Assembly (NCBI GenBank): GCA_016844745.1
Contig: JAERMQ010000018.1
Location: forward strand, 15,629 to 79,628
Direction of reading: 5' to 3'
Length of the DNA stretch: 64,000 bases
Source of the DNA: Ignavibacteria bacterium
GTDB taxonomy: Bacteria; Bacteroidota; Ignavibacteria; Kapaibacteriales; UBA2268
The position numbers were made by a program, and so were the translations under genes. The notes beneath the pieces were generated by a model. It searched no databases and was not told where the DNA came from. It saw only the letters and a program-made list of their open reading frames with translations. Below are positions 23,641 to 58,135 of the stretch, one piece after another; within the stretch, counting starts at the first letter, position 1, and every line of letters begins with the position of its first letter.

Positions 23641-23950
23641 CAAAAATTAAGAAGAAAGTCATTCTGAATCCCAAAATAATGTAACTAATAAAAATATGCA
23701 ATAACAAATTCAAGAGAAACCCCCTAACCCCCTTTGAAAAAGGGGGAATTTATTATTCTTTTCTACTTCTATATTCTATTTCCATGTTCTACTTCTATAA
23801 CCGGGGGTTAGGGGGTTTCTCAATGTTGAAATTGTTGCCATTATTTTGAATCAAGAAAAATCTGTCATTGGTAACGAAGTGAAGAATCAATAAGCGATAT
23901 TGGGACTGGATTCTTCACTTCGTTACCAATGACATTCTTCCATATTGTCA
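23641..23950. mobile_element. composite MITE-like palindromic element (AATGTCATTCTGAA terminus + CCCTAACCC/GGGTTAGGG hairpin + GAAGTGAAGAATC nested palindrome)
   Basis: About 85% identical to the element at 57866-58135. Nested inverted repeats read directly. Confidence 0.6.
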
Positions 23951-24672: not shown

Positions 24673-24699
24673 TACAAAGATATTTTTTTCAACTCAATC

Positions 24700-27324: not shown

Positions 27325-27378
27325 TTATTTCCTTATTATTTTGGTTTCTTACATTAATTTTTTTCATTATATAATTGG

Positions 27379-27482
27379 AGAAACCCCCTAACCCGGTTAT
27401 AGAAGTAGAACATAGAAGTAGAACATAGAAGTAGAAAAAAGAATAAGTTCCCCCTTTTTCAAAGGGGGTTAGGGGGTTTTTC
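27379..27482. repeat. CCCTAACCC...GGGTTAGGG hairpin repeat (inverted copy of the 23714-23822 module)
   Basis: The reverse complement of the 23.7-kb copy aligns base for base, including the internal GAAGTAGAACATA tandem motif. Confidence 0.7.
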
Positions 27483-27537
27483 CTTATCTTTGTTATTTTC
27501 AATTGCTTACTATTCCTATTTTAAGAATTTTCAATAT

Positions 27538-32439: not shown

Positions 32440-32826
32440 TTATTTAACATCAATATCATTTTCTTTTAAATTTTTTATTGCCGCTAAATTCTTCACTTTT
32501 TCTAATTCCATACTACAAATAGGACAATTTCCGGGTTTGTCTGAAATTACATTCCAGTGCATCTGGTCTTGATAAACATACCCATCCTTATTAGTGTCAA
32601 TTGCATAGACATCAATTTTTCCTTTTTTGATTAAGGTTGTATCTCCTTCTTTAGCGTCTTTCAGACTATGGTCCGAATGGTCTGAACTCCCGGAGTGACC
32701 TGAGTGGTTTCCATGACCTTTCATACTACAGCACTGAGAATTCAGGCTTGAAATTGATAATGCAAAGATAATGATTATTCCTGCTATCAAAGGAATAATA
32801 ACTTGTTTGAAATCTACTTTGAGCAT
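32440..32826 (-). CDS. periplasmic His-rich metal-binding protein with heavy-metal-binding module (CusF-like chaperone role)
   Basis: Signal/TM, 'HGNHSGHSGSSDHSDHS', and 'HWNVISDKPGNCPICSMEL', the same module found at both ends of the CusB-like protein. Confidence 0.6.
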   Translation of the reverse strand: MLKVDFKQVIIPLIAGIIIIFALSISSLNSQCCSMKGHGNHSGHSGSSDHSDHSLKDAKEGDTTLIKKGKIDVYAIDTNKDGYVYQDQMHWNVISDKPGNCPICSMELEKVKNLAAIKNLKENDIDVK

Positions 32827-32839
32827 TTTGAAATCCTTT

Positions 32840-33496: not shown

Positions 33497-33539
33497 AATT
33501 CTCCTGTTTTTATTTAAACATATCTACTTTATTATTTTT

Positions 33540-34610
33540 CTATTCGATTTTTAAGGGTAAATACATAGATACTTCTGCTCCTGATTCAATGTTCTTAGCT
33601 TCGACTTTCCCATTATGATATTCCATAATTAATCCTACTATAGCCAGGGAAAGTCCTAATCCCTCAGTATGGTGAAGAATATCATTAACTGTAAATAACT
33701 CAAATATCTGAGGTAAAACTTCTTCTGAGAAACCATTTCCTTTATCCTGAAAACAGAGAATAAAGTAATTACCTTCAATAGTTAAAATCACTTTAATTTC
33801 ACTTCCTTTGTCTGAAAATTTAATAGCATTATTCAAAATACTTTCAATTGAAAAAGCAATCAGGTTTTCATCTATTTCAACATAAATATTTTCAGCGATA
33901 AAATTTTTAGAGATATTTAAAATATTCGAACCATCCAACTCATTGAAATGTATAGTAACGTTATTAACAAAATCATCAAGATTAATTTTAACGGGTGATA
34001 AATTATGTTCCCTGAGTTTTAGTTTAGTAACCATAAGTGCTGTCTCTGAAAATTTGTTTAATCTTTTTGCCGAGTCAAATAAATGCTGTGCAATTTCTTT
34101 ATTATTTGTATTTTCAAGTTCAGTTAGAAGTATATTTGCGAGCCCCATAATACCATTAAGTGGTGTTTTTAATTCATGAGAAATTAAACTTAATATATCG
34201 CTTTTTGATTTACTTAGATGTTCAAGTTTCAAATTCGCATTAGTTAATGCTTCCGTTCTATCAATTACTTTTTGTTCGAGTGTTTTATTAAGTTCATTTA
34301 ATGTATTTTCCGATGATTTTAATTTATATTGCGTTCTATATAAAAATACCATACTGAATAAAAAAGAAATAATCAGAATATATAGTATTCTATGATAAAT
34401 TAGCATTTCAGGTATATTAAAAATTAATAAATCCAAGAAATTCATGTTTTGTGACATTTTGTCCTCAACCATCATCGGTTCAAGGATTGTTGCTAAAATC
34501 CAAACTATAGCCGAAACTAAAAGAATGATGGCTATCGTATTTTCTCTTATTTTTTTAAATTTCATTTTATTTCCTTTTCCTTGAGTTAAGCGTTTTTCTT
34601 GAAGTTCCAC
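33540..34610 (-). CDS. sensor histidine kinase
   Basis: N-terminal TMs, HisKA 'SHELKTPLNGIMG', and an HATPase_c region. Confidence 0.8.
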   Translation of the reverse strand: MELQEKRLTQGKGNKMKFKKIRENTIAIILLVSAIVWILATILEPMMVEDKMSQNMNFLDLLIFNIPEMLIYHRILYILIISFLFSMVFLYRTQYKLKSSENTLNELNKTLEQKVIDRTEALTNANLKLEHLSKSKSDILSLISHELKTPLNGIMGLANILLTELENTNNKEIAQHLFDSAKRLNKFSETALMVTKLKLREHNLSPVKINLDDFVNNVTIHFNELDGSNILNISKNFIAENIYVEIDENLIAFSIESILNNAIKFSDKGSEIKVILTIEGNYFILCFQDKGNGFSEEVLPQIFELFTVNDILHHTEGLGLSLAIVGLIMEYHNGKVEAKNIESGAEVSMYLPLKIE

Positions 34611-34701
34611 CTTGAATCTTCACATATTTCAAGAGTTCCTCTTATCTCAAGGATATATAAACCTGTTGGGTACAAACCGATAAGCAAGTTTATTTAAACA
34701 A

Positions 34702-36192
34702 TTATACCAATTGATATTGTAACATCATGCCATCATCCTCGTGTTCAAGATTGTGGCAATGAAAAACAAATACACCTTTTAATGTTGCAAATGAGATAAT
34801 GATTTTTACTGTTTCACGAGGCAAAACTAAAACGGTATCCTTAAAACCGTTTTCTGAAGCGGTCAACTGTCCCCTTCCTCCGGTTCTTTCCAACACCTGG
34901 AAATTCACTCCGTGCAAATGCATAGGATGAGGTTCATCGCCCTGTGAATTATCAAATACCCATATCTCTGTTGTATTTGCAGAAACAGTTTCATCTATCC
35001 TGTTTTTATCATATATTTTATTATTGATTCTATGAATACCTGTCATATTCATGCCACCGGTCATTTGCGGGGCATTAATAATAAAATTTCTTGTCTTTGA
35101 AGATGATGAAGGTAAAATAGCATTGACAGAAGAAAGCGAAGTCGGTACTTTAAAACTATCACTTACGATTTGTGATACTTTAAACTTCATAATCTTAAAC
35201 GTTTGTTTACCTTGAGCGCTACCACCGTTATCAAATATCCTGTTTTCCAAAAATATCTCTGTACCAGAGGTCAAGCCGGCAAAGTTTACCAGCACATCTA
35301 ATCTTTCTCCGGGAGCTAATAAAATACTTTTTACGGCTATAGGATTTCTTAACAGACCGCCATCATTTCCGATAATTATCATATCAGCATTATTACTTAA
35401 AGCAAGATTATAAATACGGGCATTTGAACCGTTTAATATTCTCAAGCGGTAAAATCTTGTTTCTACTTCACAATAAGGTGAGGCTTCTCCATTTACAATA
35501 ATTGTTTCACCCATATAACCCGACATTATTTCTCCCATAGAAGGATTATATGTAATACCTGATGCTGTAAGCCGCTTGTCCTGTATTACCAAAGGAATTT
35601 CATAATTACCTGACGGCAGATTTAAAGCAGCTTCTTCTGCATCGTTAATGATAAATAAACCTGCTAATCCCTGAAAAGCCTGTCTTGCAGTTGCTCCATC
35701 CGGGTGCGGATGATACCAGCATAGTCCTGCTCTTTGATTAATTATGAATTGGTAATTAAAACTACCTCCGGGATTTATAACAGCTTCCGGATGTCCATCC
35801 ATATTGGCAGGAATTTTTAATCCATGCCAGTGGATATTACTTTTTTCAGAAAGATTATTCTGAAAATTGATATTGGCATTAATTCCATTATTAACACGAA
35901 TTGTAGGTCCCAATATACCGTTTGCCTGGTAACCAAATACTGATTTATTGCTGCCATTAATATTTGCAGTTGTTGCCTGGGCTGTTAATGTTGTATTACC
36001 TGTTACTGTGTTTGGAATGGGGAGTAGCCTGCTGAAATTCCCTTCTGTTACAGGAACCGGTTGACTCCCCATATTCATATCACCGTTGTTCATCACGTTG
36101 CCGCATGATTCTAAAAAAGTGAACATAGAACTACCCACTAATACACTGCCTGCTCCCAGACCTGTGTTTTTTATAAATTCTCTTCGTTTCAT
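34702..36192 (-). CDS. multicopper oxidase (CueO/CopA-like), Tat-exported
   Basis: 'RREFIKNTGLGAGSV' Tat signal. 'HWHGL', 'HPMHLHG' and 'HCHNLEHEDDGMM' are the copper-ligand motifs. Confidence 0.85.
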   Translation of the reverse strand: MKRREFIKNTGLGAGSVLVGSSMFTFLESCGNVMNNGDMNMGSQPVPVTEGNFSRLLPIPNTVTGNTTLTAQATTANINGSNKSVFGYQANGILGPTIRVNNGINANINFQNNLSEKSNIHWHGLKIPANMDGHPEAVINPGGSFNYQFIINQRAGLCWYHPHPDGATARQAFQGLAGLFIINDAEEAALNLPSGNYEIPLVIQDKRLTASGITYNPSMGEIMSGYMGETIIVNGEASPYCEVETRFYRLRILNGSNARIYNLALSNNADMIIIGNDGGLLRNPIAVKSILLAPGERLDVLVNFAGLTSGTEIFLENRIFDNGGSAQGKQTFKIMKFKVSQIVSDSFKVPTSLSSVNAILPSSSSKTRNFIINAPQMTGGMNMTGIHRINNKIYDKNRIDETVSANTTEIWVFDNSQGDEPHPMHLHGVNFQVLERTGGRGQLTASENGFKDTVLVLPRETVKIIISFATLKGVFVFHCHNLEHEDDGMMLQYQLV

Positions 36193-36222
36193 ATATATAT
36201 TTTTATAGTGAATAATAAGTAA

Positions 36223-37194
36223 TTAATCATTGTCCCAATTATAGATACTAATGAAATACGCAATTATGGAATTAATATCCCTGCGCGTCAAATGGTATTC
36301 CCAGGAAGGCATCAATAGAGGCGGTGTAAAGGACTTAGAGTCTGCTTTTTGAACAACGGGCGCACCATTCAATATTTTTTGGGTGATTGAATTATATTGA
36401 GCATAAAACCTGCTGAAACTGGGGAAGGGGGGAGAATCGTTCAGCTTATCAAGGTCTACACCCCGCTCCAACAACTTGATTAAGCTGTCCGCTTCTTTCT
36501 TTTCCCCAATTTTAAGTTTTTTTGCTAACGTAATTAAATCAGGTATGGTTCTATTGACGTAATTCGGATTAAATACGCCACCGATACCGGATTGTCCATG
36601 GCATGTAAAGCATCCCTTATCAATGAAAAGAAGCTGCCCGCGCTTTATGAAAGAAATCGATGAACCCGCAGCTAATGCCGGATTAGGTGCGCAACAATCA
36701 GCACGAACAGTATCTGTAGATAACTTCTTAGCCAATTCTGTATTTTTTATTTGCTCATGGCTCAATACGACTATATTCCCCCGCATATAATTGTGGCAAT
36801 GTCCACAAAATGTAGTGCAGTAATATTCAAATTTACCGGTTACTTTCGGTGTAAATGGAACATCATAGTAGTGACCTGCTTCCACAACGATAGGTCCAAA
36901 GCCTATTTCCGGTGCATAAAAAGTATGTGTTACGTCGGCGCTTGTAAATCTGAAAATTACTTCTTCATCTTGTGTAAGAACTATATTGGCTCTTTTAAAA
37001 GTTTGACTCCCATTATTAGTGGCTGTGACTAAATCTTCAGTCCAGATTCCTTGCGAAGCTAAACCGGTAAGATGTATAACTCTTTTCTTAGTAAGGTTCA
37101 TCCATGGAGCATTTAATGAAATAGCTAATGGCGTTCCAATCAGAATAATTATTACGACAGCGCCGGCAAATATTTCTTTGAACTTGTTTTTCAT
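36223..37194 (-). CDS. CuA-type cupredoxin domain fused to a c-type cytochrome domain (CoxB-like)
   Basis: 'HTF...CTTFCGHCHNYM' fits the CuA C-x3-C-G-x2-H-x2-M pattern. 'CFTCHG' is a heme c site. N-terminal TM. Confidence 0.6.
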   Translation of the reverse strand: MKNKFKEIFAGAVVIIILIGTPLAISLNAPWMNLTKKRVIHLTGLASQGIWTEDLVTATNNGSQTFKRANIVLTQDEEVIFRFTSADVTHTFYAPEIGFGPIVVEAGHYYDVPFTPKVTGKFEYYCTTFCGHCHNYMRGNIVVLSHEQIKNTELAKKLSTDTVRADCCAPNPALAAGSSISFIKRGQLLFIDKGCFTCHGQSGIGGVFNPNYVNRTIPDLITLAKKLKIGEKKEADSLIKLLERGVDLDKLNDSPPFPSFSRFYAQYNSITQKILNGAPVVQKADSKSFTPPLLMPSWEYHLTRRDINSIIAYFISIYNWDND

Positions 37195-37205
37195 TATTAT
37201 TTCCT

Positions 37206-38675
37206 TTATCCAATAAAAAATATTAAAAACGCCATTGTCACAAGCAAGGCAAAACCAGCCATAGGAATTAACCCCATGAGCGCTGCCTTATCTGTTTTAT
37301 ATAATCTAAAGCTAACAAAATAACCACGTGAAATAGCATAGCCTAATCCAACCACCAATAAAATTAACTGGACATAGCCTAAATATTCCGGCAGGAGAGG
37401 CTGCCACTTGAAATCCGCTGTTCCGAATAGATTCCATCCCCATCCGAGAGGGTCGGAAATTACAGAAATGATATATGAACCGTTTATGAACATCAAAGGA
37501 AAACTAAATGCTATCCATGCTAAAAGCCCCAGCGGTACCAAAATATATGAAAAACCTTTAAATATTTCCCTTACAGTTACCGAATCAACACCAGACATTC
37601 GTTTTGACAGATATGAGAACAGATAGAATACTCCCGGAACAATAATCAAAGCCGAAGACCATAATATTCCGGCATAAATGAAAAAGCCGCCCCATAAGCC
37701 TGATTCCGATGCATTAGCCCAATCTTTAACCGTTCCGTTTGTCCCCAATAGTATTACCGAATATGCCATAGCCAATGCAAGCATGATAAATCCTTTAAAG
37801 GACTCGTCGAGGCTTTTGATTTTCGTTTCGGATGCAAATGGTCGAACATTCAGAGCTATGTTATCATTCTTACATGATTTGACGCACTCCATGCACAAAC
37901 CGCAATAATTATTACGTTCCATATTTCCTATGTATTCGAACCACGGGCAAGCCCATCCATCCTCATTTCCGCGAATACATCCCTTATCTTTGCATTTTTT
38001 GCAAACATCTTTATCGCCGCTTCGCAATTCCATAGTCGATGCCATTGAATACAGGCTCAGAAATCCGCTTACCGGGCAAACATAACTGCAAAATACACGC
38101 TGCCGCCAAACTATTGCTAATAAAGTACCTAAAAGCAGCATAGTTCCAAGCACTACTGAAGTAACAAAGGGACGAGTGACCAATACTGCGCTGAATGTGC
38201 ATAATGTCAAGAAGCCAATATTTTGAATCCATATATTCGAAAGAAATTTAGGCCATTTCAGGTTAAATCCGAACATTTTGTTTCTTAAATTAAAAGTCTT
38301 GCCAATCCTCACCATGATTAATGCCATTCGCTGAAATAATTCGCCGAAGAATGGCAGCGGGCATACGGTACACCAGATACGTGATGCAAAGGGAACCATT
38401 ATTGCTATTAACAAAAACCACCACAAAATCCAAATAAATACAATAGCGATATTTCTATTTCCAACAGGTGTGCCTATTAATCCAGCTATGATTATTACAT
38501 AAAACACCAATAAATTCGGCAGGATAACTAAGAACTGGAAAGATCTTGCTTTCAATATTCTCTTAAGCAACGGACTTTTTTTCAATAAATCATGTTTATT
38601 GAATGAATGCTCCTGTTCCGGCAATTTTATTTCAACTGACGGTTGCTTTTCTATTTTATCATCATATATGTACAT
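37206..38675 (-). CDS. membrane polyferredoxin, NapH/MauN/NosR-C-terminal-like 4Fe-4S protein
   Basis: Multiple TMs with 'CTVCP' and 'CSYVCP' motifs and a C-terminal Cys cluster. Confidence 0.6.
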   Translation of the reverse strand: MYIYDDKIEKQPSVEIKLPEQEHSFNKHDLLKKSPLLKRILKARSFQFLVILPNLLVFYVIIIAGLIGTPVGNRNIAIVFIWILWWFLLIAIMVPFASRIWCTVCPLPFFGELFQRMALIMVRIGKTFNLRNKMFGFNLKWPKFLSNIWIQNIGFLTLCTFSAVLVTRPFVTSVVLGTMLLLGTLLAIVWRQRVFCSYVCPVSGFLSLYSMASTMELRSGDKDVCKKCKDKGCIRGNEDGWACPWFEYIGNMERNNYCGLCMECVKSCKNDNIALNVRPFASETKIKSLDESFKGFIMLALAMAYSVILLGTNGTVKDWANASESGLWGGFFIYAGILWSSALIIVPGVFYLFSYLSKRMSGVDSVTVREIFKGFSYILVPLGLLAWIAFSFPLMFINGSYIISVISDPLGWGWNLFGTADFKWQPLLPEYLGYVQLILLVVGLGYAISRGYFVSFRLYKTDKAALMGLIPMAGFALLVTMAFLIFFIG

Positions 38676-38711
38676 AGGCTTATTTACTTTTTATTTCTAA
38701 AGTGGTAATTT

Positions 38712-38812
38712 TTTTTAAAAACCCTCACCCTAACCCTCTCCCAGAGTGAGAGGGAATTATAAATTATTTTCCCTCTCCCTTTGGGAGAGGGTTAGGGTGA
38801 GGGTTCTATATT
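38712..38812. repeat. CCCTAACCC-family hairpin variant with covarying arms (CCCTCACCCTAACCCTCTCCC...GGGAGAGGGTTAGGGTGAGGG)
   Basis: Read directly; the arm substitutions are mirrored on the opposite arm. Confidence 0.7.
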
Positions 38813-38827
38813 TAAATTGATTCCTTT

Positions 38828-39337
38828 TCATGTTCTTGATTTCTTTGTTCTAAAATAAATCATACCTAACATTCCCAAAGCAAAACCAACCGTAGCGCCT
38901 AATCCTGCATTAAATAAAATATTCGGATTAACCAGCATTTCTCCCTGCATGAATGGGTGCATCGTACCGCAAGTGTGAGAGCAGCGGTAACGGAATTTGC
39001 CTCTTTTATTTGCTATGATAACTATTTCGCTTGTGTCCTTCCAATTGAATCCTTCTGATGGGTGTCGTATTTTAAAGGTTTTAAGATTGGCCGGAATTTC
39101 GGCATCCAAATCGTATCCTTCCAAATAGAAGCCATGCATAACATCCAAAGAAACTAATCTAATGTGCAAAGTATCGCCATGATTAACTTCGAATCTGTCC
39201 GGCTCGTAAGAGTATTGACGTGCTTTGACGACGATATCCCTTCTTATGGGTTTTGACGAACCACCACCGGAGACAAACCCGACAACACTTCCGAATATTG
39301 TTATTAGCAGAGGCAGAACTATATATTTTGATTTCAT
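38828..39337 (-). CDS. CuA-like cupredoxin domain protein with C-terminal TM anchor
   Basis: 'CSHTCGTMHPFM' fits C-x3-C-G-x2-H-x2-M. Confidence 0.5.
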   Translation of the reverse strand: MKSKYIVLPLLITIFGSVVGFVSGGGSSKPIRRDIVVKARQYSYEPDRFEVNHGDTLHIRLVSLDVMHGFYLEGYDLDAEIPANLKTFKIRHPSEGFNWKDTSEIVIIANKRGKFRYRCSHTCGTMHPFMQGEMLVNPNILFNAGLGATVGFALGMLGMIYFRTKKSRT

Positions 39338-39370
39338 ACTCTATTCTATTATTTTTTGAATTTCAATTTT

Positions 39371-39970
39371 CTACTTCGCCAATTTAAATACTACATCAAC
39401 CTTAGCGCCAGATACAGTAATTTCCTGAGCCGGACCCTTCAATTTCTCGTTCCATACTTTTAGGGTATATTTACCAGCAGGTACGTTTTTAATTGAAAAA
39501 TTCCCATCCTTATCAGTTGATGAAAAATATGGATTCTGCAATACGACAACGTAAGCCTCCATTTCAGGATGCACATTACACAGAATAACACTTCTGCAGC
39601 CTGTTTGCGAAAATTTATGAGAACGGATTTCTCCCTTTTTCCATGAACCGAGATTGAATTTGTCTGCACAGGCATCCGGTGAAAAAACGTTATGCAGAAC
39701 ATCGTCGTTATTTAAAAAATTGACTGTGGTACCAACCAGCACCGGCATCACTCTTGGAGTGAAGACCAGACTTTTTTGGTTCATTTCGGGATTCTTTGCG
39801 GGGGGCTTAAAATTGCCGTCTGCCTTCTCGATATAAACCACGCAATAGGCTTTATATTTTGTTTTATTAGCATCCGTTTCGATGTGTCCTTTGATTTCAC
39901 CGGCATACATATTAATGTATGCCGATAAAAACAAAAGAAGAATAATTTTATTTAAAATTCTGTTTTTCAT
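39371..39970 (-). CDS. secreted cupredoxin-like + CarboxypepD_reg-like domain protein
   Basis: H...C...'CNVHPEM' ligand-like spacing, plus 'DKDGNFSIKNVPAGKYTLKV'. Confidence 0.4.
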   Translation of the reverse strand: MKNRILNKIILLLFLSAYINMYAGEIKGHIETDANKTKYKAYCVVYIEKADGNFKPPAKNPEMNQKSLVFTPRVMPVLVGTTVNFLNNDDVLHNVFSPDACADKFNLGSWKKGEIRSHKFSQTGCRSVILCNVHPEMEAYVVVLQNPYFSSTDKDGNFSIKNVPAGKYTLKVWNEKLKGPAQEITVSGAKVDVVFKLAK

Positions 39971-39984
39971 TATTCACCAAATAA

Positions 39985-40377
39985 TTATTGAATAGTTATC
40001 GTAAAATCTTTCATACCCATTTCACCGGCGTGGTTATAGTTACATGCGAGTTTATACGTACCCATTTCCTTAAAGGTGTATTCGCATTTAAATACTCCTA
40101 TCGCTTGTTTGGTTGCCGTCAATTTTATTGGTGATTCAGTGCCTTTTGTTACTGTAACATCAACATCGGTAACATCAGCAGGAACCATATTATCCATAAT
40201 TTCAAAAACAAATGTTGTAGGAATGTTGGGGACTATCGGATTTGGAGTATAAGTCATCGTGACTTCTGTTGCATGGTCATTATCGGTACTATGGGATGTT
40301 TCGCCACATGATGTCAGGGTTATTGAAAACAGAATAACAAATGTTATTCCGATGGCTGAATTGATTGATATTTTCAT
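39985..40377 (-). CDS. lipoprotein (FixH/YtkA-like fold?)
   Basis: 'ITLTSCGE' lipobox. The ORF track extends to 40431, but MKISIN at 40377 gives a proper signal peptide. Confidence 0.4.
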   Translation of the reverse strand: MKISINSAIGITFVILFSITLTSCGETSHSTDNDHATEVTMTYTPNPIVPNIPTTFVFEIMDNMVPADVTDVDVTVTKGTESPIKLTATKQAIGVFKCEYTFKEMGTYKLACNYNHAGEMGMKDFTITIQ

Positions 40378-40425
40378 GGTTTTTCCTTTAATATTAAAAA
40401 AGTTATTTAAATTTTTATACCCTCG

Positions 40426-40481
40426 TGTCAAGAGTTTCTCTTGACATCCTTTTTTCGAGTCAAGAGGAACTCTTGACTCGA
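40426..40481. promoter_or_regulatory. tandem palindromes TGTCAAGAG-TTT-CTCTTGACA and GAGTCAAGAG-GAA-CTCTTGACTC (candidate operator); paralogous copy at 42235-42290
   Basis: Read directly. Both copies sit ~50-100 bp upstream of minus-strand redox genes. Confidence 0.5.
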
Positions 40482-40490
40482 GGTTTCCAT

Positions 40491-41780
40491 TTATAATGCG
40501 AAATCAAGTCCTATAAACAAATTAAACATGTCGGTTTTATTTGGATTAATTACAGTTTCTGCTTTTATTTTTACATTAGCTACGAGAAGCGAACTTATAT
40601 GTACCACTATTTGCTTCCCAGAAGGGAGAGTTTTCAGATTCGCCTGCTCGTAACGGACAATTCCTGCAAGCCACGGATAGAACATATATTGCGCTTCACC
40701 GAAAAACAAATTGTATTTCTGGGCATCTGCAGCGCCATCCGAGCCAAGTAATATTCCTCCGGTTACGCGCAGGCTACCCATAATAAAACTAATATCACTG
40801 CCTGCCCGGTAGAAATCATAATCTTCATTTGCAGATAATGTACCAATACCCTTATATCCGAAAGCGCCTAATGAGAAGGATGTTTCTTTCGAATTATCAA
40901 ATTTTTCCGCCGATGTAGTGTCATTTGTGGAAGTTCCGTCGAAAGCCAAGCCACCGAATTTATATGCTAATCTGCCATAAAAATCCCTGCTTGAATTCCT
41001 ATCTGCAGCAACACTATTTCCGTTTACTACACCAATAACGTAACGAAGCCGGCTATGTAAAACACCGCTGACCTCCGCTCCCAATTGAAACTGCTCGATT
41101 CCGAATGTTCCGGTGCCATGAGCATGTCCCGCAACAAATTTATCTCCCATCGATGGGGAGTATGTATTCATCGCATAGGCAGCCTCTGTTAAACTACGGT
41201 GAAATGTAGCGAATGGGACTATTTCAGGGATAAACTGACCCACTTTCAGATATAGGGCTTTCTCCGGCAGCCAGTCTGTCAATAGGTTATCGAACTTCAT
41301 AAAGAAATTATCAATACTGCCGGTCTCGCCGTTTTCGAATAGATGAGCTCCAATCCAAAATGATAAATCCTTACCTAATACGCCAGCGGCTAAAATTTGT
41401 AGAGCAGGCATACCGAATTGGGATGTAGTTTGACCGGACGAATCATCAGTAGATACTGTGAATGCCGACCTTCCACGAAGTGAGAAAGGAGCTGTGCCGG
41501 GGATTGAATTTGGCCAGACCGCATCGGGCCACACTCTTTTATATGCTTCCGCACCCATTGGAACAGGTTTTTCTTTGACATTTTCTTCATCGTCAACCGG
41601 AAATTGATAACCGTTAATCCTGAAGGATTCGCCAAAGGAATTCAATTGCGGATATACTGTATGGCAGGTAACACAGCTTGTCTGGTATTTTCGTGCAAAG
41701 GCCGGATTTGCATAAGAAGTTTGATTAATCAGTAAAGTCCAGATTAATACAACAAACGCTGCAATAATTATTTTTTTCAT
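40491..41780 (-). CDS. fused monoheme cytochrome c / outer-membrane beta-barrel (Cyc2-like)
   Basis: Signal peptide followed directly by 'CVTCH', then ~400 aa of alternating beta-strand-like sequence ending in an aromatic residue. Confidence 0.5.
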   Translation of the reverse strand: MKKIIIAAFVVLIWTLLINQTSYANPAFARKYQTSCVTCHTVYPQLNSFGESFRINGYQFPVDDEENVKEKPVPMGAEAYKRVWPDAVWPNSIPGTAPFSLRGRSAFTVSTDDSSGQTTSQFGMPALQILAAGVLGKDLSFWIGAHLFENGETGSIDNFFMKFDNLLTDWLPEKALYLKVGQFIPEIVPFATFHRSLTEAAYAMNTYSPSMGDKFVAGHAHGTGTFGIEQFQLGAEVSGVLHSRLRYVIGVVNGNSVAADRNSSRDFYGRLAYKFGGLAFDGTSTNDTTSAEKFDNSKETSFSLGAFGYKGIGTLSANEDYDFYRAGSDISFIMGSLRVTGGILLGSDGAADAQKYNLFFGEAQYMFYPWLAGIVRYEQANLKTLPSGKQIVVHISSLLVANVKIKAETVINPNKTDMFNLFIGLDFAL

Positions 41781-44758: not shown

Positions 44759-44984
44759 TTTAAAATTCCTTTAAATGTTATAAAAATTTATTTCAAATTA
44801 TGGCGCCAAGTAAATTATACACATGAACTGTGCCAAAGATGTAAATAATTGCATTATAAGGAATTAACGAAATTTTTTGAAATTGATAAATATTGAAAAA
44901 CGACAATTTTGTCGTTAAATAAAGCAAATTTGTTGTAAATATTAAATTTATTTTCAGGAGAAAAGAATTAAGCCTTATTTCAGT

Positions 44985-45125
44985 ATCTCAAACCAATTTT
45001 CTGGTCGTTCGACTGATGCTTCAATAGCCTTTTTTAATTTATCCTTGAATTTCCAGCATGTCATCTGCCGCAGTGAAAGCCGTCTTGCAAACTCATAAGA
45101 AGAAATTTCTGAATCCGAAGTATTT
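44985..45125 (-). mobile_element. remnant of IS1595-family transposase N-terminal region (direct repeat of 49660-49800)
   Basis: About 100 bp are ~99% identical to the 3' part of the 49638-50051 ORF. Confidence 0.7.
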
Positions 45126-49456: not shown

Positions 49457-49637
49457 AACGTTAAATCTTTTTTATGTTCATAATAATTTAATTTTCAAAA
49501 TCATAAAATTACTTTTAATTAAAACTACAAAATAATATTATAAAATGCAAAAAAAATGAAGTTTCTGTTTACACTTAGTTGCTGGGTATTCAAAAATGTT
49601 ATTTCAAGGAATTGGATTGAGAGAATTGAAGACAAGT

Positions 49638-50051
49638 TTACTTCAGAATCTCAATCCAATTAGCTGCGCTTTCGCCCGATGCTTCAATAGCCTTTTTTAA
49701 TTTATCCTTGAATTTCCAGCATGTCATCTGTCGCAGTGAAAGCCGTCTTGCAAACTCATAAGAAGAAATTTCATCATTGCCTTTGCATACGCTATAAGCA
49801 ATATAGAAAGCCTTACTAATCGAAAATCTGCAATGATGGAAAATTGTACCGGCAGTTGCCGACTCTTCCTTTTTGCATTTGGTACACCTTCTTGAGAAAT
49901 GAGTTTTCCCAGGGCAGCTATTTGTGTTGCCGCATTTTTTGCAAGTAAATCCGGCTGACCACTTCAAATCAGCCAAAAATTCATAACATGCCAAATCGCT
50001 TGTAAACAGGCTTTCTATTTGAGCTTGAGTTAATTCTTTATAAAATATCAT
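49638..50051 (-). CDS. IS1595-family transposase, N-terminal zinc-ribbon/HTH fragment only (no DDE domain)
   Basis: 'CKKCGNT...CPGKTHFSRRCTKCKKEESATAGTIFHHCRFSISKAF' matches the IS1595 N-terminal domain. Truncated at 137 aa. Confidence 0.6.
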   Translation of the reverse strand: MIFYKELTQAQIESLFTSDLACYEFLADLKWSAGFTCKKCGNTNSCPGKTHFSRRCTKCKKEESATAGTIFHHCRFSISKAFYIAYSVCKGNDEISSYEFARRLSLRQMTCWKFKDKLKKAIEASGESAANWIEILK

Positions 50052-50089
50052 TGCAATTCAAAAATACGAATATAATCTTTAATTAAACA

Positions 50090-50185
50090 AGAAAAACCCC
50101 CTAACCCCGGTTTTAGTAGTAGAACAGGGAAGTAGAAATAGAAGTAGAAAAATTCCCACTTTTTCAAAGGCGGTTAGGGATTTTT
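50090..50185. repeat. CCCTAACCC...GGTTAGGG hairpin repeat copy
   Basis: Read directly; shares the internal GTAGAA tandem motif. Confidence 0.7.
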
Positions 50186-50303
50186 CTTGTTTAATAATTT
50201 CAATGATAAAAAAATATTTACAATAAAAGTGATACTTATACGATTTAATAATTAACAAATATGTAATTTTGAAAAATATTTATTTGATAAATGAAAGGAA
50301 GTA

Positions 50304-50546
50304 ATGGAAAACAACTGTAAAATTGAAGAGGGCCCAAAAAATTTTAAGGATAGAATAAAATCCTGCGCTTTTCGCAAGACATTAATAGGGATTGTTTTAG
50401 GTGGATTAGGAGGTTTCCTGTATTATTATTTTATCGGCTGCTCCACCGGAAGCTGCGGTATTGCAAGCAATCCTTACTATAGTACCCTCTGGGGAAGTTT
50501 ATTCGGGTTTCTGATTGTTAAAAGCCCATGTCGAAAATGCAATTAA
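50304..50546 (+). CDS. small membrane protein with CxxxxC pairs (unknown)
   Basis: 80 aa, one TM, 'CSTGSCGI'. Located upstream of the TlpA-like gene. Confidence 0.35.
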   Translation: MENNCKIEEGPKNFKDRIKSCAFRKTLIGIVLGGLGGFLYYYFIGCSTGSCGIASNPYYSTLWGSLFGFLIVKSPCRKCN

Positions 50547-50588
50547 TATTAACTTAAATATTACTAAAAAATAATTAAAAGGAAAATA

Positions 50589-51194
50589 ATGAAAATCTAT
50601 AAAAATGGAATCATTTTATTAACATTAATGTCATTTTCAATGTTTTACTCCTGCTCGAAAAACGAGGATGCTCAGGATAAAAATAAACCGAATGTTGAGC
50701 AGAATAGCGCATCAACAGGCAAGTCATCGGTTTTTCCGGTCATCAAGGTCGATGCACCAATAGGTAAACAAGCAGCTAATTTTTCTTGGAAAGAAGATAA
50801 TCAGGCTGTCAATTTTGCGGAATTTACCAAAGGAAAATTTGTATTCCTGAACTTCTGGGGAACATGGTGCCCGCCATGCAGGAGGGAAATTCCGGATATT
50901 GTGCAACTTGCAGCAGAGATGAAAAATAAAAACCTTGTAGTTATTGGAGTTGCTTTGGAACGAGTAAATACAGTTGAAGAAGCAATAGATGTAGTTTCCA
51001 GGTTTTCCAGTAGTAATAATATGGGCTACACTAACGTTATAGCTACACAACAATTAACTGAAGCTTTCGGTGGTATTGAGTCGGTTCCAACTACCTTTCT
51101 CATCGATGATAAAGGAATGATTGCTCAAGTTATTCAGGGCTCCCAGAGTAAAGAGGCATTCATGACAGAAATAAATAAAATGATGAAAAAGTAA
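50589..51194 (+). CDS. TlpA/ResA-like thiol:disulfide oxidoreductase lipoprotein (thioredoxin fold)
   Basis: 'FWGTWCPPCRRE' and an 'FYSC' lipobox. Confidence 0.8.
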   Translation: MKIYKNGIILLTLMSFSMFYSCSKNEDAQDKNKPNVEQNSASTGKSSVFPVIKVDAPIGKQAANFSWKEDNQAVNFAEFTKGKFVFLNFWGTWCPPCRREIPDIVQLAAEMKNKNLVVIGVALERVNTVEEAIDVVSRFSSSNNMGYTNVIATQQLTEAFGGIESVPTTFLIDDKGMIAQVIQGSQSKEAFMTEINKMMKK

Positions 51195-51212
51195 AATCAT
51201 TATAAGAGACAT

Positions 51213-51300
51213 CTGAAAATTGTCTTTCGTAAGCGAAGTGAAGAATCCGGGAACCGCATTGGGACTGGATTCTTCACTTCGTTCAGAATGACATTCTTCT
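51213..51300. repeat. MITE-family nested palindrome (GAAGTGAAGAATCC...GGATTCTTCACTTCG + TTCAGAATGACATTC terminus)
   Basis: Read directly; homologous to 23870-23950. Confidence 0.65.
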
Positions 51301-51454
51301 TGGCTTTTGAGACAACCTCACTTTTTATATTAAACTCATCCATGTTAGTTTCCAATAGGGAATACAAATGAACTTTTAGTCAGAAAATAAATCAACCATA
51401 TGGTTAACCCTATGGTTGATGTAATATACAAATTCAATCATTTCTTATATCAGA

Positions 51455-52456
51455 TTATTTTACGATTTCATAGTTCTGACATTCAGACTCTTTCCAGGCA
51501 GATTTATTCTTAGCAATCATTGCATCATAGAATAATGCGTTACCGCCATAAGATATAGATTTTATATCATATCCCATTACTTTAAGGAATGCTGTAGCAT
51601 ATCCGGCAGTATGACCGGTATAGCAATAGATTGCACAGGTTTTATTTGTTGGGATTGTCTTCAAGAAATTAGCTAATTTAAAATCGGATTTTGGCACATA
51701 ATTAATTGCTCCCTGCAAATGACCGGGGTCTTTATAATCGGCAACCGTCCAATAAGCCATAATAAAATAATTGGCTAAATTACCAATAACGACATCTTGC
51801 TTGACTGATGGAAATCCGTCAATGAAAAGCTGTGCAATCCTTGCATCTAAGATTTCCTTGCCGATTGCTTTTCCTGTACTTAATGTTGGTAGCGAACCTA
51901 AAGCGGGTTTTGGAATTGAATCCTGCTTTAAATATGCCTGTCCGCCATTACCTACACCATTTGTCCATGTAGCTTTAAAATCCGAATGCCAGGAAGCCAT
52001 GCCGAACTTCATGCTGAATACATTTCCATATCCGGATAATCTGAGCAAACATGTAGAATAAGCAGCAGATTGACCTGAAAAACAGACCATATAAACTTTG
52101 GTATATTTTGTCATATCATTTGCCTTAAAATAATTCAGGATTTCTTTAAATTGAACATTTATAGCTCCTGCAATATGTCCTTTTGCGAAGGTTGCCGTAT
52201 CGCGAATATCCATTACGAAGTACTTCGCAGGGTCGGCAGTTATGTTTTGCTTGACTTCGGTAGTCGGCGCAATATTACTGCCGGTTACGTTAATATAGTC
52301 TCCGCCTGTACTTTCGAGATACTGGACAAGTATCTCGGATTCATTTACCTTTGTAGGTTCAGTTGAATTATCATCGCTGCAACCGATGAACATGAATACT
52401 ACCAACGAGAATAATAAAGCTAATAAAGCTTTTCGGTCATTAATTTTACAAATCAT
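51455..52456 (-). CDS. tandem rhodanese-domain sulfurtransferase lipoprotein
   Basis: Two rhodanese-like halves with Cys loops ('CFSGQSAAY' and 'CYTGHTAGY'); 'FIGC' lipobox. Confidence 0.65.
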   Translation of the reverse strand: MICKINDRKALLALLFSLVVFMFIGCSDDNSTEPTKVNESEILVQYLESTGGDYINVTGSNIAPTTEVKQNITADPAKYFVMDIRDTATFAKGHIAGAINVQFKEILNYFKANDMTKYTKVYMVCFSGQSAAYSTCLLRLSGYGNVFSMKFGMASWHSDFKATWTNGVGNGGQAYLKQDSIPKPALGSLPTLSTGKAIGKEILDARIAQLFIDGFPSVKQDVVIGNLANYFIMAYWTVADYKDPGHLQGAINYVPKSDFKLANFLKTIPTNKTCAIYCYTGHTAGYATAFLKVMGYDIKSISYGGNALFYDAMIAKNKSAWKESECQNYEIVK

Positions 52457-52536
52457 AAAATCTCCATATTTAAATTTAACATATATTGTGTATTAGAAAT
52501 TACTTATGTAAATACAACAAGTAATTCATAAATTTT

Positions 52537-53844
52537 CTATTTCAACCAACTTTGTGGTAATTTATCATCTACAGCAATTTTATTAGATGATGATTTTTCC
52601 CAATCAAATTTAAAATCAGACTGGAATAAATAGAATTGTTTGTTCCTAAATTCATTTCCATCATTAATAATATGACAAGCATCGTAACAGGGTTTTCCAT
52701 TCGCAACCTTTGTTCTGTCTGTCCATTTTAAAGTATTATGAGGTGTTGCATAATTATAAACAGGCAATGCATCGAAATTTGGTAAATTCGGTACACCATA
52801 CAGCACCCAGCTATCGGGAGCCATTAGAGTATGCCTAACTAAAGCAAATTTAAATTCCGGTTTGGCGTCCGGTATTGGATTCAATGCAATTTTAAAATCC
52901 TGATAAGATGCAATTCTGGCGCCATCTCCATTTATATGGCAGCTTCCGCAATTATTATAAGCCTGCGAATGGCAGGTATTGCAGCTAAATGAATTATAGT
53001 GTATTGAATGATACTGATTTTTTGACTCCAAGCCGGTATGACAATTCTTACACTTTGGCAGGTGCTCATACTTATATCTTTGTTCGATAAATTTCCCGGA
53101 GCCATGAATTTCATCTTTAGTATGGCAACTGACGCAGGTAAAGCCCGATTTACTTAAATGAACATCCGGCTGTGTCCCCGATGCCACTCCGAGAAATGCA
53201 TGTCCTCCCCGGGAAGTATGGCAACCGACACAGGTGTTAATCATATCCGGTTTCCCTGAAAAATCGTGACCATTCATAAGTCCGCCGCCTTGCGCTTTTG
53301 GTCTGTTCACATGACAATCGCCACAAGTAGATGCATGGCATTTCGCGCAGTTATATTCATATCCGTCTTTTACTTTCTGGGGAAGCTGCGTGAATTCAGT
53401 CGCATCCTTTAATCCCATCCTTAAGCAGACTTTTCTCTTTTGCCCCCAACCCATTTGATGAAGACTGTTGCTGTGGTTAAGAACTGCCGATTCATGGCAG
53501 CTTTTGCACTTTTCGGAGGCGAAATCTTTAGTCGGATGAGCAAGGAAATTTCCACTGTGGGCTTTATTCTTATCATCTGTGTTGCCAATACCATTATGAC
53601 ATCCAACGCAACCTATGGGATAATGCTTTGATTTTTTGAAAGACTCGTAGCCTACACCGCTAATAAAAACCCTGTCGAATGGTTCGTAATGAGGAGTTTC
53701 ACCACCACAGCTCGACCCTCCGCTACCGGTATCGGGGGTAAATACCTGCTTTAGGTGTGCATAATTAGTATGGCAGCCTTCACATGAAGCAACGGTCTTA
53801 TTATCGGGTTCTACAGGATTACCTGAATTGTTGCATCCTACCAA
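52537..53844 (-). CDS. multiheme c-type cytochrome (~10 CxxCH), lipoprotein; annotated from a TTG start because of an upstream in-frame TAA
   Basis: Ten or more CxxCH motifs. In the same frame upstream: ATG(53889)...TAA(53862-53860)...'LLILFLVGC'. Confidence 0.7.
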   Translation of the reverse strand: MVGCNNSGNPVEPDNKTVASCEGCHTNYAHLKQVFTPDTGSGGSSCGGETPHYEPFDRVFISGVGYESFKKSKHYPIGCVGCHNGIGNTDDKNKAHSGNFLAHPTKDFASEKCKSCHESAVLNHSNSLHQMGWGQKRKVCLRMGLKDATEFTQLPQKVKDGYEYNCAKCHASTCGDCHVNRPKAQGGGLMNGHDFSGKPDMINTCVGCHTSRGGHAFLGVASGTQPDVHLSKSGFTCVSCHTKDEIHGSGKFIEQRYKYEHLPKCKNCHTGLESKNQYHSIHYNSFSCNTCHSQAYNNCGSCHINGDGARIASYQDFKIALNPIPDAKPEFKFALVRHTLMAPDSWVLYGVPNLPNFDALPVYNYATPHNTLKWTDRTKVANGKPCYDACHIINDGNEFRNKQFYLFQSDFKFDWEKSSSNKIAVDDKLPQSWLK

Positions 53845-53903
53845 AAAAAGAATAAGTAATTAAATACTAAGAATTGATAGATTTTTCATTTAAACACCTA
53901 AAT

Positions 53904-54374
53904 TTAATTAATATGGTTCCTTGACCACGCAGTAAGGGAGTTCAATAGTTCTTCTATTGCCACCAATACCGAATCCCTCGCTTCCAATGGTATATGTTCT
54001 AATACTTTTTCATGTAATAACACATGCTGTTCGATTACTTGCTTTATAAATGGCTGCGCAGTTTCCGTGAGCCTGACTTTGATATTTCGTCTGTCGTTTA
54101 AATCTATTTCTCTTGAGATATAATTTTTCTTTTCCAATGAAGTTATAATTTGAGTTATCCTGCCGGAAGTTAATCCCATAATTTTTGCCAATTCTTTTAC
54201 GGAAAACAGGCATTCACAATCCAAAAACCTCATGCAGCGAAACTCGGCATTTGTCAATCCAAACAGTTTTGTGAAATATTGTTCCTTATCTTCACAGGCA
54301 CGAGCTAACAAAAATGTCAATTGAGCGAGTTTTGCAGCTTGTGCTAGCCTTTTTTCTTTTTTTTCTTTAGTCAT
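53904..54374 (-). CDS. MarR-family transcriptional regulator
   Basis: Winged-helix 'LTSGRITQIITSLEKKNYISR'. Confidence 0.75.
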   Translation of the reverse strand: MTKEKKEKRLAQAAKLAQLTFLLARACEDKEQYFTKLFGLTNAEFRCMRFLDCECLFSVKELAKIMGLTSGRITQIITSLEKKNYISREIDLNDRRNIKVRLTETAQPFIKQVIEQHVLLHEKVLEHIPLEARDSVLVAIEELLNSLTAWSRNHIN

Positions 54375-54617
54375 AATTAAATCTCAAAATAGTTAAACCT
54401 CTAAATAATTTAAGTTATAAATAATTTAAACTATAAATAATTTAGTCACTAAACTATTATTGCAAATTTAATAACAATTTTACTATTTTGCAAAGGATTT
54501 TTTTTTGTAAATATTTTGTGTAGAAATAAATATTGAGTTTGTTCTGTAAAATAATAACATGGCATTACTTCATTCGAGGTTGTGTGAAAAGTAAAAACAG
54601 TGATGAAAATAAGGATA

Positions 54618-54705
54618 ATGAAGAACCCCTCCCTAACCCTCCCCGAAGGGGAGGGAATTGATAAATAAGACCTCTCCTTCGGGGAGGGTTAGGGAGGGGT
54701 TCTTC
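54618..54705. repeat. CCCTAACCC-family hairpin variant (CCCCTCCCTAACCCTCCCCGAAGGGGAGGG...)
   Basis: Read directly; the arms covary. Confidence 0.7.
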
Positions 54706-54788
54706 ATTTAGTTAAATATTGAAGTAAATATGGTTTTCACACAGCCTAATTCACAGGTATGACAATTTTTAGAACATCCCAATAATTC

Positions 54789-57701: not shown

Positions 57702-57865
57702 AGAAAAAATTTTAAATGATATGTTTAGCTTACTATCATTAGAACCGGAAATAATACAATTTCCGGTTCTTTGTTTTTCTAAAGCTATAGTTAATTTAAT
57801 TAATGCTGGGGCTGTCTCATAAGTATAAATAGTTGTCTTTACTGCGAAAGAGGTTTCTGAAAAGT

Positions 57866-58135
57866 CAGGAAGAATGTCATTCTGAACTCTAAAATAATGG
57901 AATTAATAAAAATACACAATGACAAAATCAAGAGAAACCCCCTAACCCCCTTTGAAAAAGGGGGAATTGATTATCCCCCCTTTTTCAAAGGGGGTTAGGG
58001 GGTTTCTCAATGTTGAAGTAGTTACCATTATTTTGTATCAAGAAAAATCTGTCATTGGTAACTTGATTCAGAATCCATAAACCGCACTGGGAGTGGATTC
58101 TGAATCAAGTTCTGAATGACATTACATAATTTTTT
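57866..58135. mobile_element. composite MITE-like element with ~15-bp terminal inverted repeats AATGTCATTCTGAAC
   Basis: Left end 'gaatgtcattctgaac', right end 'gttctgaatgacatt'. Internal CCCTAACCC hairpin plus a nested palindrome. Homologous to 23641-23950. Confidence 0.65.

Follow-up and report, generated by a model that had tools for sequence, protein, structure and literature searches.

Small non-coding repeats are dispersed in bacterial DNA, and one family of them has been described several times under different names (Bachellier et al. in the 1990s; Hoyne and Maher 2000; Holder et al. 2015, PMC4666352). The BoxC repeats of Escherichia coli were re-described as PIT (potential intrastrand triplex) elements and as the intrastrand triplex motif TM_ECO (Holder et al. 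2015, PMC4666352), and E. coli sequences of this family were described again as HPGQ, a switch between a G-quadruplex (G4) and a hairpin (Kaplan et al. 2016, PMC5100583). The published TM_ECO pattern reads CCCTCNCCC N3-6 GGGNGAGGG N3 GGGNGAGGG (PMC4666352); in type A units the second loop is TTA, and the units are frequently found in inverted pairs (Holder et al. 2015, PMC4666352). In published work, units of this kind are reported to block DNA polymerase in vitro and, in E. coli, to mark loci that are unstable. The elements have been known since the 1990s, and published work establishes no cellular function for them. Here we describe six elements, named A to F, at 23.7, 27.4, 38.7, 50.1, 54.6 and 57.9 kb of a 64,000-nt stretch (the window) of contig JAERMQ010000018.1 from an Ignavibacteria bacterium, the 64 kb being the part of the host genome that our analysis covered. 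Judged by their sequence the elements are members of the BoxC/PIT/TM_ECO family.

Relationship of the window elements to the BoxC/PIT/TM_ECO family

The family was recognized by a full-text literature search for GGGTTAGGG. In the window CCCTAACCC or its complement occurred 11 times, on both strands and always inside the six loci, while dinucleotide-preserving shuffles gave an expectation of 0.17 and none of 100 shuffles reached 11. All six loci listed in an initial annotation of the window were verified as CCCTAACCC/GGGTTAGGG palindromes, and all of them were intergenic. The elements stand out sharply in composition from the window, whose G+C content is about 35%. The TM_ECO pattern was matched exactly by the unit at 38771-38803 (plus strand) and closely by its partner at 38724-38754 (minus strand); the units at the other five loci lay outside the literal pattern. 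When the 38.7-kb copy was compared by blastn with complete E. coli genomes, 14,924 places in 4,325 of 5,426 genomes were detected. Half-units of this copy reached up to 97% identity over 36 nt, and the whole inverted pair aligned with the wcaA-wzc spacer of one E. coli strain at 76.7%. The window elements also had the features expected of BoxC members: each of the six was intergenic, A and B stood in inverse orientation among same-strand genes, and three of the six were complete inverted pairs.

The arms of the elements had been called telomere-like. This likeness turned out to be incidental and limited to the TTA loop between G-tracts, and the telomere idea was abandoned, as true (CCCTAA)n arrays were seen only in some unrelated IMG/VR contigs. 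In those contigs (L001, L008, L011, L019 and L021, short and labelled viral) (CCCTAA)n arrays faced (TTAGGG)n arrays; they are probably of eukaryotic origin or the ends of linear replicons, unrelated to the bacterial elements.

Architecture of the unit and the mirror rule

To describe the architecture across genomes we used a pattern scan, with one genome per species, for CCCTAACCC(not A)(not A) N39-69 (not T)(not T)GGGTTAGGG, which gave at least 111 loci; the cross-genome figures below are for the 111 elements (222 halves) among the matches listed. This sample is selected for CCCTAACCC...GGGTTAGGG inverted pairs and its members are related to each other. By record title, the hosts among the matches listed were Alphaproteobacteria (Mesorhizobium, Azospirillum), Gammaproteobacteria, Bacteroidota, Nitrospirota, Chloroflexota, Planctomycetota, Cyanobacteria, Armatimonadota, Omnitrophota, Caldithrix and others. 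Nearly all listed elements consisted of a variable outer tract, CCCTAA, a hairpin starting from CCC, a purine-rich RAY tail, a spacer, a second hairpin, TTAGGG and a second outer tract.

The building block is one half, a unit of 30-36 nt, and not the long arm-to-arm hairpin. Each unit is composed of a homopyrimidine C-rich stem, a loop of 3-4 nt, a homopurine G-rich stem, a TTA loop and a second G-rich tract mirroring the first one, with G opposite G and with T or A opposite A. The long palindromes of the initial annotation arise because two units stand in inverted orientation. A hairpin directly after TAA was detected in 191 of 222 halves, compared with 10 of 222 after shuffling; these hairpins had 65 distinct 5' stems and loops mostly of 3-4 nt. 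In the 126 distinct hairpins, stem positions 4-9 were occupied by C-G or T-A and almost nothing else, with Watson-Crick pairing of 88-98%, and thus the 5' strand is homopyrimidine and its partner homopurine; beyond position 9-10 the orientation of the pairs was mixed. The outer arms were complementary for approximately 6-8 nt beyond CCC (66-84% at positions 1-6 versus 34-52% when shuffled) and background was reached by position 13.

Positions 4-9 were not fixed by the search, except that A was excluded at inner positions 4-5. At these positions mirror (triplex) compatibility was 93.6% of 676 positions, whereas it was 56.4% with the outer tracts shuffled among loci (sd 2.0, maximum 62.1%) and 55-63% in shifted registers. 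The first non-C position coincided in 114 of 124 unique halves, with 41.7 expected, and none of 10,000 permutations reached 114. Interruptions of the inner tract were almost always A, and the mirrored outer position was T (71) or A (35). There were 39 positions at which the halves of one element disagreed; the outer tract followed its own inner tract at 32 of them and paired with the opposite arm at 7. As an independent check we looked at 33 extra CCCTAACCC occurrences outside the selected pairs: 25 had a hairpin directly after TAA, most of these 25 also with a mirror-compatible outer tract. Single, unpaired units were found both there and in the window.

In the ITxF definition a class II intrastrand triplex motif has three tracts, stems of 6-15 nt with at most one mismatch, and loops of 1-6 nt. 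We ran a motif finder set to G/C-rich class II units with stems of 7-12 nt, a first loop (loop 1) of 3-7 nt and a second loop of 2-5 nt. It reported 8 complete units in the window, which fall into five of the six loci, whereas 20 shuffled windows gave none. The class II rules (G.G-C, A.A-T and T.A-T triplets in antiparallel register) were obeyed by the window units and failed by the decayed 50.1-kb copy; one of the eight units (38724-38754, loop 1 of 7 nt) exceeded the 6-nt loop limit of ITxF.

The initial annotation had proposed covariation, as opposed to decayed duplicates of one sequence. With more copies compensatory change proved abundant and two-sided (126 distinct hairpins), and therefore the lack of covariation support that had been thought to speak against the proposal was not observed. 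Its further claim that secondary structure is conserved was borne out in so far as the family is a structured one and no mere collection of decayed duplicates; the arm-to-arm hairpin, in contrast, is not the constrained unit, as the 32 of 39 positions that follow their own half, against 7, demonstrate. The mirror relation of outer to inner tracts, absent from the initial annotation, is not accounted for by secondary structure of the Watson-Crick kind. RNAalifold applied to a MAFFT alignment of 40 units was discarded. The alignment anchors on TTA and places C-stems of unequal length out of register, so that the consensus structure was meaningless, and structure-anchored counts were used instead.

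The six elements in the window

The copies had been said to change in step, both in their arms and in their inner hairpins, and both statements held. Complementarity of the arms, measured with a repeat finder, was 84% over 50 nt at 38.7 kb, 97% over 38 nt at 54.6 kb and, in addition, 97% over 36 nt at 57.9 kb. The inner hairpins were of three stem types, for which we give an improved reading: CCCCCTTT-GAA-AAAGGGGG, CCCTCCCC-GAA-GGGGAGGG and CCCTCTC-CCAGAGT-GAGAGGG. The hairpin formerly read as "CCCCC...GGGGG" is the first of these, and it is mirrored by the outer tract GGGGGTTT with three T.A-T triplets. Folded as single-stranded DNA (ssDNA), the three full palindromes had energies of -41 to -47 kcal/mol, with z-scores of -9.6 to -13.6. 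Three of the six loci lay between tandem genes of the minus strand, one between tandem genes of the plus strand and two between divergent genes.

Element A (type I, 23714..23821) contains a complete unit on the minus strand at 23717-23746, CCCCCTTT TTC AAAGGGGG TTA GGGGGTTT, and a truncated second unit (G-tract, TTA and G-tract at 23802-23821) in which the C-stem is replaced by three copies of a 13-nt tandem repeat at 23761-23799. It is part of a larger repeat of about 300 bp (23642..23940, plus strand), whose paralogue at 57860-58127 contains element F. Element B (type I, 27377..27483) is an element of about 105 nt like A, in inverse orientation, with a complete unit on the plus strand at 27450-27479; its spacer is ATAGAAGTAGAAC repeated 2.9 times (27399-27436), and it is located in the 213-nt spacer separating the OEP and cusB-like genes. 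The 27.4-kb copy had been described as the exact inverse of the 23.7-kb copy. It is the inverse, but not an exact one, the identity being 92% over 48 nt and 77% over 106 nt.

Element C (38717..38806) is an inverted pair of BoxC/TM_ECO-type units with a canonical G4 motif on both strands. Its plus-strand unit at 38771-38803, which fits the published pattern exactly, reads CCCTCTCCC TTT GGGAGAGGG TTA GGGTGAGGG, and the minus-strand unit (38724-38754) has a 7-bp stem and a 7-nt loop. Element D (50090..50185; CCCACTTTTTCAAAGGCGGTTAGGGATTTTT) is a decayed type I copy with the right arm GGTTAGGGA, and it was not reported as a complete unit by the finder; its substitutions disrupt the hairpin and the mirrored tract alike. 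It lies 39 nt away from a truncated open reading frame (ORF) with an IS1595 zinc-ribbon domain. Element E (54617..54708), the copy on which the initial annotation was centred, is an inverted pair in the divergent spacer between a MarR gene and a PAS histidine kinase gene, again with a G4 motif on both strands; its minus-strand unit at 54626-54655 reads CCCTCCCC TTC GGGGAGGG TTA GGGAGGGG and its plus-strand unit is at 54671-54699. Element F (type II, 57932..58008) is an inverted pair of CCCCCTTT-type units, at 57935-57964 on the minus strand and 57975-58005 on the plus strand. The gene upstream of it has its own terminator-like hairpin at 57741-57770, apart from the element. Example oligonucleotide sequences of a unit are CCCCCTTTTTCAAAGGGGGTTAGGGGGTTT (a window unit) and CCCTCCCCTTCGGGGAGGGTTAGGGAGGGG.

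DNA triplex, G-quadruplex or RNA structure

The pattern of the units is matched more closely by a purine-motif DNA triplex than by an RNA hairpin or a G4. On the G-strand such a motif uses T.A-T and A.A-T triplets, which accommodate both the T (71) and the A (35) interruptions. A pyrimidine-motif triplex on the C-rich strand was rejected, as it would need T in the third tract at 71 of 106 interruptions that have A there, and only 35 are compatible with it. Mechanistically, the G-rich strand may become transiently single-stranded during replication, repair, transfer or transcription; a hairpin on this single strand could then accept the mirrored tract as its third strand and form a purine-motif intrastrand triplex, and the paired form might also be extruded as a hairpin or cruciform.

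The initial annotation had suggested that the G-tracts could form G-quadruplexes; only two of the six loci contain the canonical motif for this. Canonical motifs (G3+ N1-7 G3+ N1-7 G3+ N1-7 G3+) were found on both strands of the 38.7- and 54.6-kb copies, the total in the window being 5 against 0.03 in shuffles, and 92 of 220 unique halves elsewhere contain one. Kaplan et al. (2016) interpreted the HPGQ sequences as a switch in which a G4 formed by four G-runs (G3-4 N1-3 G3 TTA G3 N1-3 G3-4) is in competition with the hairpin, acting in DNA or RNA as a regulatory switch near promoters; circular dichroism evidence for a K+/Mg2+-dependent switch has been published (PMC5100583), and two of our six loci lie between divergent genes. 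For the window elements we nevertheless regard such a switch as unlikely. At 23.7, 27.4, 50.1 and 57.9 kb, where the units are of the G5-TTA-G5 type, no canonical motif is present, yet the hairpin and the mirrored T-run are kept. Among the 220 halves a triplex of at least 7 triplets was predicted in 130, and halves suited to the triplex but not to a G4 numbered 41, compared with 3 for the reverse. Moreover, a G4 needs neither a conserved C-rich partner strand nor a strictly homopurine inner tract nor the asymmetry of A in the inner and T in the outer tract, and the distance and orientation of the neighbouring genes are inconsistent both in the window and in E. coli.

A structured RNA, that is a 3' untranslated region (UTR) stabilizer, a terminator or a small RNA whose long hairpin is kept by compensatory mutation, would account for the very stable predicted hairpins, for the compensatory changes of pairs and for the intergenic position with mostly tandem or convergent neighbours (29 tandem, 8 convergent and 4 divergent among the lower-G+C loci of the matches listed). 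However, one subfamily, represented by A and B, is present in both orientations between same-strand genes, the hairpins are not consistently followed by a U-run, and the gene before element F is followed by a separate terminator-like hairpin. A scan for intrinsic terminators detected only sub-hairpins with AT-rich tails, on either strand, with hits near the shuffle expectation, and published tests on E. coli units found no promoter or terminator activity. At the gathering threshold Rfam gave only a molybdenum cofactor (Moco) riboswitch and a tRNA in the window, both outside the elements; at an E-value threshold the elements scored 23-41 bits against eukaryotic miRNA precursors and 23 bits against one snoRNA family, where the cut-offs are 72-171 bits. 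Watson-Crick pairing also leaves the mirrored third tract unexplained, and this tract prevails when it is in conflict with arm-to-arm pairing. The earlier suggestion that the elements are transcribed as 3' UTRs or small RNAs is hence not one that we uphold, in view of the two orientations between co-directional genes and the missing Rfam match, and we hold the structured-RNA explanation to be very improbable. A DNA-level constraint is favoured because of the pattern of T and A interruptions, the few canonical G4 motifs, the occurrence in both orientations and the absence of terminator or Rfam support. Purine-motif triplexes do not form in RNA according to the literature. We infer that the constraint acts on the G-rich DNA strand and not on RNA.

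Genomic distribution and possible modes of spread

Elements A, B and D are copies of one composite of about 105 nt, consisting of a full unit, three copies of the 13-nt tandem repeat and a half unit. Their mean identity was 83% and their flanks became unrelated at GAGAAAC/GTTTCTC. A and B are in opposite orientations among genes that are all on the minus strand, and inspection of the sequence showed no target-site duplication at the ends of any of the three copies. In the paralogous segment of about 300 bp shared by A and F the element parts were identical at 56 of 58 positions and the flanks at 166 of 233 (95-97% versus 70-72%), and since the identity of the elements exceeds that of the flanks, constraint or homogenization is suggested. 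The nearest available relative, Ignavibacteria GWB2_35_12 (62% protein identity), has the same cusA-OEP-cusB gene order. Its OEP-cusB spacer is 71 nt long and without an element, as compared with 213 nt with element B here. GGGTTAGGG was absent from all 76 loci that were fetched regardless of the motif. The best metagenomic relatives of the histidine kinase were only 32-36% identical and so offered no orthologous spacers, and their 73 loci were used as unselected background only.

The elements had no preferred orientation and no linked gene: beside the 111 listed elements no protein family recurred except generic ABC ATPases. The window contained no transposase other than the truncated IS1595 zinc-ribbon ORF adjoining the decayed copy. 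Similar sequence was detected on 342 plasmid records, 108 of them predicted to be conjugative; carriage by phages was dismissed as negligible (5 of 50,697 phage records). In a comparison of filled and empty sites at the E. coli wcaA-wzc spacer, only 6 genomes shared the flanks. The comparison with repetitive extragenic palindromic (REP) sequences and bacterial interspersed mosaic elements (BIMEs) made in the initial annotation was apt, as the elements are intergenic and stand in both orientations, as singles, pairs and clusters. Because they are intergenic, in either orientation, of several subfamilies, with near-identical copies and one decayed copy, patchy and found on plasmids, they look like REP/REPIN-type selfish or neutral repeats. 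On this distribution they may be selfish or mobile.

Mobile doublets of the REPIN kind would be one possible way of spreading. The inverted pair with its spacer would then be the replicating unit, copied in trans via ssDNA by a single-copy HUH/Y1 (RAYT-like) or other enzyme encoded elsewhere, which would recognize the folded hairpin together with its third strand. The whole type I doublet of about 105 nt, including its spacer of 13-nt repeats, is indeed present three times with unrelated flanks, the elements are patchy between relatives, and a constraint on an ssDNA fold suits enzymes that act on ssDNA hairpins. Like REP sequences and BIMEs, the units are arranged singly, in inverted pairs and in clusters, and locus L103 has 8 units within 650 bp. 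We consider this rather unlikely all the same: no Y1/HUH gene was found in the window and none recurred near the 111 listed elements, no conserved GTAG-like tetranucleotide was found (in the matches listed only a weak RAY follows the hairpin), and identical types of unit turn up in many phyla, unlike REP sequences, which co-vary with the RAYT that belongs to them. No RAYT has ever been linked to E. coli BoxC. The array in L103, a metagenome-assembled genome of Enterobacterales, lies at 5616-6245; its eight TM units in approximately 650 bp alternate in orientation in a BIME-like manner, and the third strands are either central or outermost, both arrangements being present.

A more specific idea, which we offer as an improbable speculation, is that the unit is the folded-ssDNA recognition module of a REPIN-like system that has reached more than 10 bacterial phyla, partly by way of conjugative plasmids, and is copied in trans by a triplex-reading enzyme. 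If true, this would explain why E. coli, rhizobia, cyanobacteria, Nitrospirota, Bacteroidota and the Ignavibacteria genome share one design, including the TTA turn, while close relatives lack the elements.

The elements also resemble classical miniature inverted-repeat transposable elements (MITEs), the arms of which would be terminal inverted repeats bound by a DDE transposase and would change in step because both ends must bind one enzyme. They are small (75-110 nt), dispersed and intergenic, with inverted arms and sharp ends (GAGAAAC...GTTTCTC), and a truncated IS1595 zinc-ribbon ORF is found beside the 50.1-kb copy. We find this explanation highly improbable, since target-site duplications are lacking at all three type I copies, single units exist without a partner arm, and the arms follow their own half rather than each other (32 of 39 positions versus 7). 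No transposase recurs beside the 111 listed elements and no full-length insertion sequence (IS) with such ends is present in the window. Integron attC sites, defined by RYYYAAC...GTTRRRY cores, extrahelical bases, one orientation and cassette arrays beside intI, were rejected as well. Neighbouring copies are separated by 3-12 kb, scattered over ordinary operons in either orientation, and form near-perfect palindromes; no integrase was seen in the window.

Other repeats and genes in the window

A second family of palindromic repeats was found at 6317-6398, 23840-23945, 51234-51299 and 58045-58127. Its outer arms are GTCATT(CTG/GGT)AAC...GTT(CAG/ACC)AATGAC, and its inner stems terminate in GAATC/GATTC and vary in step from one copy to another (GAAGTGAAGAATC, TTGATTCAGAATC, TTGTTTCAGAATC). 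Besides these loci GTCATTCTGAA was seen at 23658 and 57876; allowing at most one mismatch, it occurred 7 times against 1.7 expected. Two copies of this family adjoin the TM elements A and F and form BIME-like mosaics with them. A near-perfect palindrome of about 28 bp, TCAACCATAGGGTTAACCCTATGGTTGA, is present in two copies about 94% alike, at 3328-3359 and 51392-51423, between yajC and a polysaccharide deacetylase gene and upstream of a rhodanese gene, respectively; it could be a candidate operator for a dimeric regulator. Intergenic heptanucleotide tandem repeats of 4 to 10.6 copies were located at 8711-8743, 28845-28918, 22231-22260, 7588-7615 and 6790-6822, with the related units TAATTCG, AATTCAT, TTAGTAA, TAATTAC and AATTAAG. 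Two genes of the copper region flank a perfect tandem repeat of 18 nt, AATCATCCCTGATTGTCA, in 4.8 copies (24801-24887), each unit having a TTGTCA -35-like hexamer in a promoter scan, and a 59-nt sequence is repeated twice at 24694-24808.

The copper homeostasis island, at approximately 21500-40500, encodes CueP, cusCBA-like resistance-nodulation-division (RND) efflux genes, HMBD proteins, a multicopper oxidase and cupredoxin-like and YtkA-like proteins; three of the six TM elements are inside it. The IS1595 ORF beside element D (49638-50051, minus strand, 137 aa) contains only the zinc-ribbon domain of the transposase, and a segment of 152 nt (49621-49772, the 3' end of this ORF and the sequence downstream) is repeated about 4.7 kb away at 44958-45109 with 88% identity. 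The ORF looks like an IS remnant or a small domesticated gene. At approximately 50000-54000 the cumulative GC skew has its minimum and gene orientation turns from mostly minus to mostly plus, which could mark an origin of replication or the boundary of an inversion; a dnaA gene was not seen. Several window proteins carry a type IX secretion C-terminal sorting domain. One of them is a 959-aa molybdopterin oxidoreductase (14178-17057, minus strand; Fe4S4, Molybdopterin and Molydop_binding domains), the gene of which is adjoined by the Moco riboswitch (12602-12720, minus strand; 80 bits) and Moco biosynthesis genes. Type IX export of such a cofactor-containing enzyme, as its predicted sorting domain would imply, would be unusual.

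Discussion

We think it reasonably probable that the window elements are BoxC/PIT/TM_ECO repeats with REP-like behaviour, that the constraint on them acts at the DNA level and that their G-rich strand can adopt a purine-motif intrastrand triplex. Triplex folding in vivo would be a consequence of this reading, against which several points have to be set. Holder et al. (PMC4666352) obtained a stable triplex only for the isolated strand and no triplex signal for the double-stranded form, and their in vivo dimethyl sulfate footprinting in E. coli showed no protection. Given that published footprinting in vivo revealed no stable triplex, any fold must be transient. About 40% of the sampled halves had short stems (five triplets or fewer) or no detected hairpin, and therefore the triplex is not obligatory. 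The mirror symmetry of the G-tracts also favours a G4 (canonical in 92 of 220 halves). Because the sample was selected for inverted pairs, the TTA loop and the pairing in it were forced by the search, and because the sequences are related, the permutation numbers overstate independence. Finally, mobility would be deduced from distribution only, and no target-site duplication, exact filled-versus-empty site or enzyme was found.

The family has already been published as BoxC/PIT/TM_ECO, no new kind of system is revealed, and our additions are modest. New are a host from the Ignavibacteria in which three unit subtypes coexist and a composite variant occurs, a sample across phyla in which the within-unit mirror rule outweighs arm-to-arm pairing among the matches listed, and arguments by which a DNA purine-motif fold of the G-rich strand is preferred to an RNA hairpin or a G4. 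The range of the family extends beyond Proteobacteria and beyond the G+C-rich repeats of cyanobacteria, the elements being dense in the window of this low-G+C Ignavibacteria genome. The logic of three mirrored tracts narrows what functional or mobility models must explain and provides a simple rule for annotating such repeats.

Comparison with known systems

Bacterial MITEs such as Correia/NEMIS, ERIC and RUP share with the window elements their size, inverted arms, intergenic dispersal and folding into a long hairpin. The window elements differ in having no target-site duplication or parent IS, and in that the constraint is within halves and not between ends. REP sequences, BIMEs and REPINs are likewise short GC-rich imperfect palindromes, arranged as singles, inverted doublets and clusters, that are intergenic, high in copy number, genome-specific and patchy, with a doublet seemingly copied whole. 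Unlike them, the window units carry an extra mirrored tract and have sequences that recur across phyla instead of being lineage-specific, and no conserved GTAG-type 5' tetranucleotide was found, nor any RAYT in the 64-kb window. The HPGQ description (PMC5100583) regards identical E. coli sequences from the G4 side, and the 38.7- and 54.6-kb copies qualify as canonical G4 motifs and have a C-rich partner, whereas most window units (G5-TTA-G5) do not qualify as such motifs.

The closest correspondence is with BoxC/TM_ECO itself. The layout of C-stem, loop, G-stem, TTA and mirrored G-tract is the same, the unit at 38.7 kb conforms to the published pattern and shows 97% identity to copies from E. 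coli, and loops vary more than stems. In both cases the elements are intergenic, without strand bias, often in inverted pairs and patchy between close relatives. In contrast to the proteobacterium E. coli, the host of the window elements belongs to the Ignavibacteria (Fibrobacteres-Chlorobi-Bacteroidetes (FCB) group) and has about 35% G+C. Five of the six window loci use other stems (CCCCCTTT, CCCTCCCC), and in one subfamily a half-unit is replaced by the 13-nt tandem repeat. Both units of the window pairs have TTA loops, while the pairs of E. coli K-12 combine a TTA unit with a CCG unit, and the density of about 1 per 10 kb, a value for the window only, compares with 23 per 4.6 Mb in K-12.

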